From NCBI RefSeq assembly GCF_003334405.1, contig NZ_QOWM01000045.1: a stretch of 1,343 nt of DNA; one strand, 5' to 3'. Made by a program: the position numbers and the translations under genes. Source of the DNA: Escherichia coli. Its GTDB lineage: Bacteria; Pseudomonadota; Gammaproteobacteria; Enterobacterales; Enterobacteriaceae. Shown in pieces: positions 174 through 1,286 of the stretch. Every line of letters begins with the position of its first letter. Position 1 is the stretch's first letter. The notes beneath the pieces are model-generated. The model worked only from the letters and a program-made list of their open reading frames with translations, did not search any database and was not told the DNA's origin.

Positions 174-1286
174 TTAGTTCTTCTTTTCGGATCCGGCACT
201 TCTGGGGGGGAAATCCAGCGATGGCTGGATTATGTCGTCAATTAAAAATGCGGCGAGTAGATTAGCAAATATCCACGCTTTCGCGAGTTCAGGTTCCTTT
301 GCACGCAAAGCATCCAGGTGCAGCAAACTTTTGAGCCGCTTAAAAGCCAGTTCAATTTGCCATCGCAGACGGTAACAATCAGCCACTTGCTCTGCTGAAT
401 ATTCATCTTCCGGTAATGATGTTAGCAATAGCACATGGCCCGCTGCTTCCAGCGTTTCCGCCTGAACTACTCGTCCTTTTCGACGATTCTCGCTGAGCAG
501 TCGGGTTTTACTGATTAATGCTTTTTCGGGAGGAAGTGATACGGCAATGAGACGTGCCGGAAAGGGAGCTCCGGCTTTTTTATTACCTGAATTGCCTATC
601 ATTACAGTGGTTTCACCGTTCTTACCGCAATCCAGCCCGCGCAGAAAACCCATCATGTCAAAGCGCATTCCTTCTGCAGTTAACCAGCGCAATCCTCGCC
701 AGTGAACCCGGACGATATAATCAGCTTCTCCAAAAGCAAGTGAGCGGATACATTCGGGACGCGAACCGAATCCCCGGTCAGCAATGCGTATCTCGTCTGC
801 CGTTTGCGCAAATCGGTCCAGCCGTTCAGCGTCTCTGCTGTCGGTTAGCTCAAAATCAGTGAACTGACAGGTATGAGGATCATATCCCATATGTAGTCGC
901 CATTCAGCGCTGCCGCCCCCGGGCGCACTGATTGCTGTTCCATCGACAAGACGCAATCTCTTTCCGCTTGTACAACCCGTAACTGCGGCGCGTACAGCAA
1001 GTGTTTGTGCGGCAAGTATGCCAAACCAGTCGGCGGCATTCCGCAGCCGCTTCAGGAGAGCCACGTCAGATAATGTTGCAACGTCATGGAGCTGAGCCCA
1101 TGCAGTGACTTCACGTAATGACATCCCCCCGGGGCCGTAAGCCAGCCCCAGACGTAGCAGAGTTGCAGCATCACGAATTTCGCGGCGGCGGGTTAGAGCC
1201 CCGGCATTACGTGCCGAAGTATCCAGTTCTTCGGGCTTACCAATATGGGCCAGAATTGCTGACCAGTTATCGTGAGAGTAATTCAT
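174..1286 (-). CDS. insL: IS186-type DDE transposase (IS4 family), 370 aa, apparently intact
   Basis: Seen in sequence: uninterrupted minus-strand ORF with ATG at 1286-1284 and TAA stop at 176-174. The track ORF (174-1292) begins two codons earlier at an in-frame GTG (1292-1290). The product from the ATG starts MNYSHDNWSAILAHIGKPEEL, which I recall as E. coli IS186 InsL. Candidate catalytic residues by analogy with IS10/Tn5 (transposase numbering): D115 in LVDGT (codon 944-942), D170 in IADRGFG (779-777), E312 in YRLRWQIELAFKRLK (353-351). The Y-(2)-R-(3)-E-(6)-K signature spans 374-339. The N-terminal third is basic (TRRREIRD...MSLREVTAWAQL), consistent with a DNA-binding region. Confidence 0.93.
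   Translation of the reverse strand: MNYSHDNWSAILAHIGKPEELDTSARNAGALTRRREIRDAATLLRLGLAYGPGGMSLREVTAWAQLHDVATLSDVALLKRLRNAADWFGILAAQTLAVRAAVTGCTSGKRLRLVDGTAISAPGGGSAEWRLHMGYDPHTCQFTDFELTDSRDAERLDRFAQTADEIRIADRGFGSRPECIRSLAFGEADYIVRVHWRGLRWLTAEGMRFDMMGFLRGLDCGKNGETTVMIGNSGNKKAGAPFPARLIAVSLPPEKALISKTRLLSENRRKGRVVQAETLEAAGHVLLLTSLPEDEYSAEQVADCYRLRWQIELAFKRLKSLLHLDALRAKEPELAKAWIFANLLAAFLIDDIIQPSLDFPPRSAGSEKKN

Follow-up and report, generated by a model that had tools for sequence, protein, structure and literature searches.

The stretch of DNA analysed here (the window, 1,343 nucleotides) carries the transposase gene insL on the minus strand, flanked by perfect terminal inverted repeats. Over its 1343 bp, it shows 0 mismatches to each of the three IS186/IS421 copies of E. 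coli K-12 MG1655 (IS186A, B and C; NC_000913.3), which lie in the orientation opposite to that of the window. The features discussed below are the following, with positions counted in the window:

1..2, no strand: CC, bases from the inner part of the G/C-rich target-site duplication, outside the element; they vary with the target in the plasmid copies L008 and L009
3..1341, no strand: mobile unit IS186/IS421, 1339 bp, with 5'-CAT...ATG-3' tips, delimited by the 10-bp repeats that abut CAT...ATG in L008 and L009
3..25, no strand: terminal inverted repeat of 23 bp, downstream of insL; 100% complementary, after removal of the 2 outer nt
174..1286, minus strand: insL transposase gene of 370 codons, running from the ATG at 1286-1284 to the stop at 176-174; from the list of open reading frames and the translation
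204..210, no strand: G7 run, intact in the window; another copy, L011, has lost 1 bp here (G6)
243..968, minus strand: DDE_Tnp_1 catalytic domain, residues 107-348 (Pfam PF01609, E 3.6e-26, model positions 2-200 of 200)
330..374, minus strand: Y-(2)-R-(3)-E-(6)-K motif, with Y305 at 374-372, R308 at 365-363, E312 at 353-351 and K319 at 332-330
351..353, minus strand: E312, predicted catalytic glutamate, codon GAA
708..710, minus strand: R193, counterpart of Tn5 R210 and the additional (R) in (R)YREK; at least 90% of relatives keep it, and it aligns with Tn5 R210 and IS10 R182
777..779, minus strand: D170, predicted second catalytic aspartate (IRIADRGF), codon GAC
825..827, minus strand: E154, invariant acidic residue outside the triad, paired with the invariant E161 of the Tn5 family in the extended alignment
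891..893, minus strand: H132, near-invariant, paired with Tn5 H127 in the extended alignment
942..944, minus strand: D115, predicted first catalytic aspartate (LRLVDGT), codon GAT
1125..1134, no strand: C6G4 run, intact in the window and the site of 1-bp deletions in other copies (L012 lacks one C, L013 one G)
1319..1341, no strand: terminal inverted repeat of 23 bp, upstream of insL; 100% complementary, after removal of the 2 outer nt
1342..1343, no strand: GG, bases from the inner part of the target-site duplication at the opposite end, from a junction comparison that includes the K-12, L008 and L009 copies

The element is widespread. Among the complete E. coli genomes, 2221 of 5426 carry it, with matches to the window at 8693 places and 1 to 22 copies (median 3) in each matching genome, where RefSeq product names refer to the IS421 family or the IS186B family. 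In 2725 of 2815 records from this search, the best copy is at least 99% identical to the window. On plasmids, 1004 records from Escherichia, Salmonella, Klebsiella, Shigella, Enterobacter, Citrobacter and others match. Copies identical to the window are found at different loci, with a target duplication of their own in each case, both in K-12 and on plasmids of at least six genera.

The insL gene forms one uninterrupted open reading frame on the minus strand, from 1286 to 174, in agreement with the earlier note, which had described a transposase without a frameshift. The start used here equals the annotated start of MG1655 insL1 (b0016); a GTG lies two codons upstream of the ATG, and its use would give 372 codons. 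The codon positions that had been proposed for D115 (944-942), D170 (779-777) and E312 (353-351) are likewise right, reading GAT, GAC and GAA. A consensus scan of the element found no sigma-70-like promoter site and so gave no sequence evidence for expression of insL. A terminator scan of the element gave no more terminator-like sites than shuffles did; an imperfect 19-nt inverted repeat (33-51/66-84, 84% complementary, 14-nt spacer), located between the transposase stop codon and the downstream terminal inverted repeat, was not among its calls. GATC occurs at just two sites in the window, 190 and 878, and is absent from the ends and from the region upstream of insL. Dam sites in the ends of IS10 and IS50 regulate the activity of those elements, from which IS186 differs by having ends without GATC.

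To place the protein among known transposases, we relied on curated family models. InsL matches Pfam DDE_Tnp_1 (PF01609), the profile the earlier note had singled out for a search, across the whole model at the E-value listed above. Furthermore, it scores 133.3 bits against the NCBIfam model NF033592 (IS4 family transposase; curated cutoff 115) and falls far below the cutoffs of the NCBIfam IS701 and IS1634 models. An exhaustive search of 1.84 billion representatives returned 5136 relatives at E<=0.001. Conservation was read from an alignment of 126 sequences, the query and 125 full-length relatives at 30-47% identity, in which D115, E154, D170, R245, R308, W309, E312 and K319 are invariant, while Y305, R193 and H132 are kept in at least 90% of the sequences. 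The Tn5 partners of E154, R193 and H132 (E161, R210 and H127) are also invariant, or nearly so, across the Tn5 family.

A regular expression for Y..R...E......K matches the 370-residue protein once, from Y305 onward (YRLRWQIELAFKRLK), and the pattern arose by chance in 269 of 200,000 shuffles of the protein (0.13%). The YREK signature is thus present and in the right order, as had been proposed, but its reported span of 374-339 is wrong. More specifically, 374-339 translates as YRLRWQIELAFK and ends at K316 (E+4), so that the motif lysine K319, at 332-330, falls beyond the lower bound of 339. The true span is 374-330, and this correction is one practical gain of the analysis. The additional arginine of the extended (R)YREK set corresponds to R193, and the IS10 residue aligned with it, R182, is invariant in the IS10 family.

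InsL was then compared with the transposases of Tn5 and IS10. The Tn5 reference sequence equals that of PDB 3ECP except for the three engineered substitutions of that entry, and the IS10 reference is 100% identical to the Tn10 copy of plasmid R100. Several routes failed. A single-sequence phmmer search of PDB sequences returned 1wty only, a spurious match (E-value 0.27), and no transposase, which made a family profile necessary. With hhalign, the family profile set against a single Tn5 or IS10 sequence aligned in the C1 region alone; a global-mode alignment gave nonsense and was discarded; and hmmsearch, even when run without any filter, stopped short of the D97 region, so that family profiles were required on both sides. 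The IS186-family profile, searched against all PDB sequences, retrieved Tn5 transposase entries only, pairing the DRG motif with Tn5 D188 and the YREK helix with Y319...K333.

The catalytic triad of Tn5 is D97/D188/E326, and the catalytic residues of IS10 are D97, D161 and E292. We aligned the IS186 family with profiles of the Tn5 family (55 sequences) and of the IS10 family (52 sequences) in hhalign. At default stringency, the alignment with Tn5 (probability 89%, E 2e-6) pairs D170 with D188, R193 with R210, Y305 with Y319, R308 with R322, E312 with E326, K316 with K330 and K319 with K333. The corresponding alignment with IS10 (probability 94%, E 1.6e-7) pairs D170 with D161, Y305 with Y285, R308 with R288, E312 with E292 and K319 with K299. 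Two of the three residues that the earlier note had assigned by analogy thus fall on the catalytic positions of both paradigms without any relaxation. For D115, the case is more qualified: it pairs with D97 of Tn5 and of IS10, but only in relaxed or extended alignments and with low per-column confidence. The relaxed-threshold alignment with Tn5 (probability 92%) adds D115=D97, H132=H127 and E154=E161, with low per-column confidence there, and the extended alignment with IS10 adds D115=D97 at similarly low confidence. In Tn5, E326 is the catalytic glutamate, and Y319, R322 and R210 coordinate phosphates (PMC2566895).

An AlphaFold2 model built on the family alignment (mean pLDDT 93.5, pTM 0.90) provides a second line of evidence. 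In this model, D115 sits halfway along the first core strand (110-119), D170 comes right after strand 165-169, and E312 is located in helix 309-322, a predicted placement that is the standard RNase-H-like arrangement of such a triad. In a Foldseek search of the PDB, Tn5 transposase structures take the first five places (E 1e-9 to 1e-7, with probability 1.00 and about 410 aligned columns), ahead of the piggyBac and ISCth4 transposases. The pairing of D115 with D97 is backed by the model and by conservation, since D115 lies mid-strand in the first core strand and is invariant in the 126 homologues.

A different choice of acidic residues, for instance the invariant E154 in place of D170 or E312, is hardly credible, even though E154 and the triad are equally invariant, the Tn5 family shows no variation at the counterpart E161 either, and the N-terminal part of the profile alignments is of low confidence. 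What decides against it is that D170 and E312 fall on established catalytic residues of Tn5 and IS10 at default stringency, that the Tn5 partner of E154, E161, lies outside the Tn5 triad D97/D188/E326, and that the model puts E154 in a loop that separates core strands three and four, whereas the triad occupies strand 1, the end of strand 4 and a helix. Sequence comparison and the model support D115, D170 and E312 as the putative metal-binding catalytic triad of InsL. With the alignment run, all three acidic residues stand on catalytic positions (D115 through the extended alignment), and the earlier assignment by analogy is now replaced by one from alignment and fold. A literature search for mutagenesis or biochemistry on the IS186 transposase itself found none, and the residue roles in IS186 accordingly rest on homology. 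The resulting map from IS186 to Tn5 and IS10 residues can be used for designing catalytic-dead InsL mutants.

The boundaries of the element can be placed from its copies at other loci. The earlier note had reported perfect inverted repeats, and the window does end in 25 nt of perfect complementarity; two of the 25 nt on each side belong to the target, however, and 23 nt to the element. The flanks in the window are limited to 2 nt per side, CC and GG, which agree with a GGGG(N6/N7)CCCC target, and identical copies elsewhere show the full target. Two plasmid copies inserted in off-consensus targets are decisive. In L008, GGTTACTTGC occurs as a perfect 10-bp direct repeat on both sides of CATAAG...CTTATG, and in L009 the same holds for GGATATAAGG; the bases before CAT in these copies are GC and GG rather than CC. 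Because these repeats abut CAT...ATG without CC, the transposed unit corresponds to positions 3-1341 of the window, with CA/TG tips and a 10-bp duplication. The MG1655 copies lie in GGGG-N6-CCCC targets with the cores ATCACT, AGTAAT and ATAATT, each with its own duplication, and fit GG-N6-CC, that is, 10 bp.

IS186 targets have been described as GGGG(N6/N7)CCCC with a duplication of the 6/7-bp core (PMC5009759), and the RefSeq feature measures 1345 bp. Both are explained by the consensus target, since there the two boundary readings give one and the same string. The RefSeq feature and the core duplication of PMC5009759 set the boundary 2-3 bp too far out. An element of 1343-1345 bp with a 6-bp duplication was considered and rejected, as it would need the first one or two element bases to have mutated to the local target in L008 and L009. 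The unit of 1339 bp with its 10-bp duplication bears on how IS186 junctions ought to be called in resequencing pipelines.

Two further plasmid copies, L005 and L010 (p102-629a and p102026_1), lack a target duplication: the left flank reads GGGGAAAATCC, and at the right junction CTTATG is followed by CTATGCATCCCC, beginning with CT. This points to a rearrangement, either recombination between IS copies or an IS-mediated deletion or inversion, and both copies were left out of the boundary analysis as rearranged.

More distant relatives were inspected at their ends and insertion sites as well. The ends of P0004 and P0009 (45-47% protein identity) start with CATAGG or CATATG. At L006 (14-48/1358-1392) and L007 (129-159/1474-1504 and 1489-1587), relatives lie in the loops of longer GC-rich palindromes, with direct repeats of 11 bp and 10 bp (GGGTCAAGCCC and GGCGAATGCC). 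At L007, an inverted second copy of the same palindrome, together with an element tip, starts 51 nt away. Sequence contexts of this kind suggest that the lineage may have a conserved preference for hairpin-like repeated targets. It is conceivable, though we consider it doubtful, that the IS186 lineage targets structure and not plain sequence, given that the K-12 sites are hairpin- or terminator-like and that the relatives sit in palindrome loops. Neither structure targeting nor the shift in boundary alters the main conclusion on IS186.

An intact triad is necessary, not sufficient, for activity. The earlier note had predicted that this copy is likely mobile, and this is borne out by data that already exist, as the window equals the three MG1655 copies and IS186 insertions are documented in MG1655-derived lines (PMC5009759). 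In these E. coli mutation-accumulation lines, IS186 inserts at a rate of about 0.4e-4 per genome per generation and is among the four IS families that make up 97.7% of new insertions (PMC5009759). In addition, spontaneous IS186 insertions into the lon promoter have been found in either orientation (PMC3045373). Mobility is thus already experimentally established for a sequence equal to the window.

One might still regard the present copy as an inert relic or a domesticated gene, kept by vertical descent and not by transposition: activity is unprovable by sequence alone, the element contains no promoter-like site that our scan could find, and with flanks of just 2 nt the target duplication of this very copy is unreadable. 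We consider this very improbable. The identical copies noted above, at different loci with duplications of their own, and the range of 1 to 22 copies per genome speak against it, as do the new insertions in MG1655-descended lines, whose every IS186 copy equals the window. Moreover, truly decayed copies look different, being either frameshifted in homopolymer runs or truncated.

Among these decayed copies are truncated ones, which break off at 143, 958 and other positions. Three plasmid copies (L011, L012 and L013) are otherwise near-identical to the window, and each carries a single 1-bp deletion in a homopolymer run. The deletion in the G7 run would alter only the last ~11 residues of the transposase. 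L013 is annotated as frameshifted, and over L011 and L012 the gene table of PLSDB, which is incomplete, lists no CDS. Such deletions may reflect genuine slippage mutations or, alternatively, errors in sequencing the homopolymers.

InsL is a 370-residue DDE transposase with an RNase-H-like core and, if it works like the Tn5 and IS10 enzymes, would bind the 23-bp terminal inverted repeats. D115, D170 and E312 would carry out two-metal catalysis, and R193, Y305, R308 and K319, the (R)YREK residues, would handle the end phosphates, as their homologues do in Tn5. Excision would take place at the CA/TG tips, probably by way of a DNA hairpin, and the element would insert into G/C-flanked GGGG-N6-CCCC targets, giving the 10-bp duplication. 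We infer this hairpin cut-and-paste chemistry from the conservation of the (R)YREK residues and from a fold that resembles Tn5 transposase, and the roles of the individual residues from homology. When the hairpin of Tn5 forms, W298 stacks on the flipped base. The IS186 residue aligned with W298 is V285, which calls for caution regarding the hairpin.

This substitution would also fit an active transposase that follows a copy-and-paste or otherwise replicative route instead of the hairpin cut-and-paste of Tn5 and IS10, as would the lack of IS186 biochemistry in the literature we searched and the 758 insertions against 1 excision counted over all IS families in mutation-accumulation data (PMC5009759). 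Few excisions are nevertheless expected for cut-and-paste too, because the donor site is repaired from the sister chromosome. The complete (R)YREK set, which in Tn5 handles the non-transferred strand and hairpin resolution, is conserved, and Tn5 transposase heads the structural matches, its alignment of about 410 columns taking in the domain inserted between D2 and E. On balance, we regard a replicative route as improbable and favor cut-and-paste through an end hairpin as the likely mechanism of IS186.

Taken as a whole, the window is best explained as an undamaged IS186/IS421 of the IS4 family, whose insL encodes a DDE transposase with the triad D115/D170/E312, and we hold this to be nearly certain. 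The identity and mobility of IS186, and hence the finding of the earlier note, were already known for a catalogued IS4-family element. The finding on the transposase is correct but ordinary, and its importance is mostly bookkeeping.

Finally, we compared the element with named systems. With K-12 IS186/IS421 (insL1-3), the sequence, gene start, gene length and GGGG-N6-CCCC target habit are all equal, and only the boundary convention differs (RefSeq feature 1345 bp, window 1343 bp, transposed unit 1339 bp).

Tn5/IS50 transposase (PDB 1MUH, 3ECP) shares the DDE_Tnp_1 core with InsL, and the D/D/E residues and (R)YREK set of the two proteins align one to one. It is the best solved structural match, yet the identity is only 14-16%. 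The insertion between the second D and E is large in both proteins (141 residues in IS186, 137 in Tn5), whereas the spacing from D1 to D2 is 54 residues in IS186 against 90 in Tn5, and the IS186 transposase is 106 residues shorter overall. Relatives of Tn5 carry the N-terminal domain PF14706 and the C-terminal dimerisation domain PF02281; a Pfam search of InsL gave PF01609 only. The target duplication of IS186 is 10 bp, compared with 8-9 bp in the IS50 subgroup (PMC2266710). Membership of the IS50 subgroup was rejected on both grounds, the missing PF14706 and PF02281 and the length of the duplication.

The IS10 transposase of Tn10 belongs to the same Pfam family and is likewise encoded by a single open reading frame of similar size (402 against 370 residues in IS186), with a sequence similarity that profiles alone detect. 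In the IS10 subgroup, the tips are CT and the duplications 9 bp long (PMC2266710), in contrast to the CAT tips and 10-bp duplication of IS186, and membership of that subgroup was rejected on these differences.

In relation to the IS4 family at large, of which the earlier note had named IS10 and Tn5 as the paradigms, the placement is sound, with NF033592 above its cutoff and profile alignments to both families. The window has every testable defining feature of the family. As in the definition of PMC2266710, the 370-residue protein is encoded by one open reading frame without a programmed frameshift. The D/D/E residues follow the order N2, N3 and C1 and can be aligned with those of the paradigms (D115 by the extended alignment together with its invariance and position in the fold), and YREK is complete (Y305, R308, E312, K319), its E being the DDE glutamate. 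The protein matches curated Pfam and NCBIfam profiles, the terminal inverted repeats have 5'-CA tips (a perfect 23-bp repeat starting with CATAAG), and the target duplication is about 10 bp in L008, L009 and the K-12 copies.

The 10-bp duplication is the norm of the IS4 family, and the emerging families IS701, ISH3 and IS1634 make duplications of 4-6 bp (PMC2266710). Neither IS186 nor IS421 is named in 'IS4 family goes genomic' or its supplements (PMC2266710), and the subgroup of IS186 is for this reason not assignable from that work. Among the subgroups described there, IS231 and ISH8 (De Palmenaer et al. 2008, PMC2266710) resemble IS186 in their CAT tips and complete YREK, and they make duplications of 10-12 bp or 10 bp; at 1339 bp, IS186 is shorter than the size ranges of both (1400-1800 and 1450-5400 bp).
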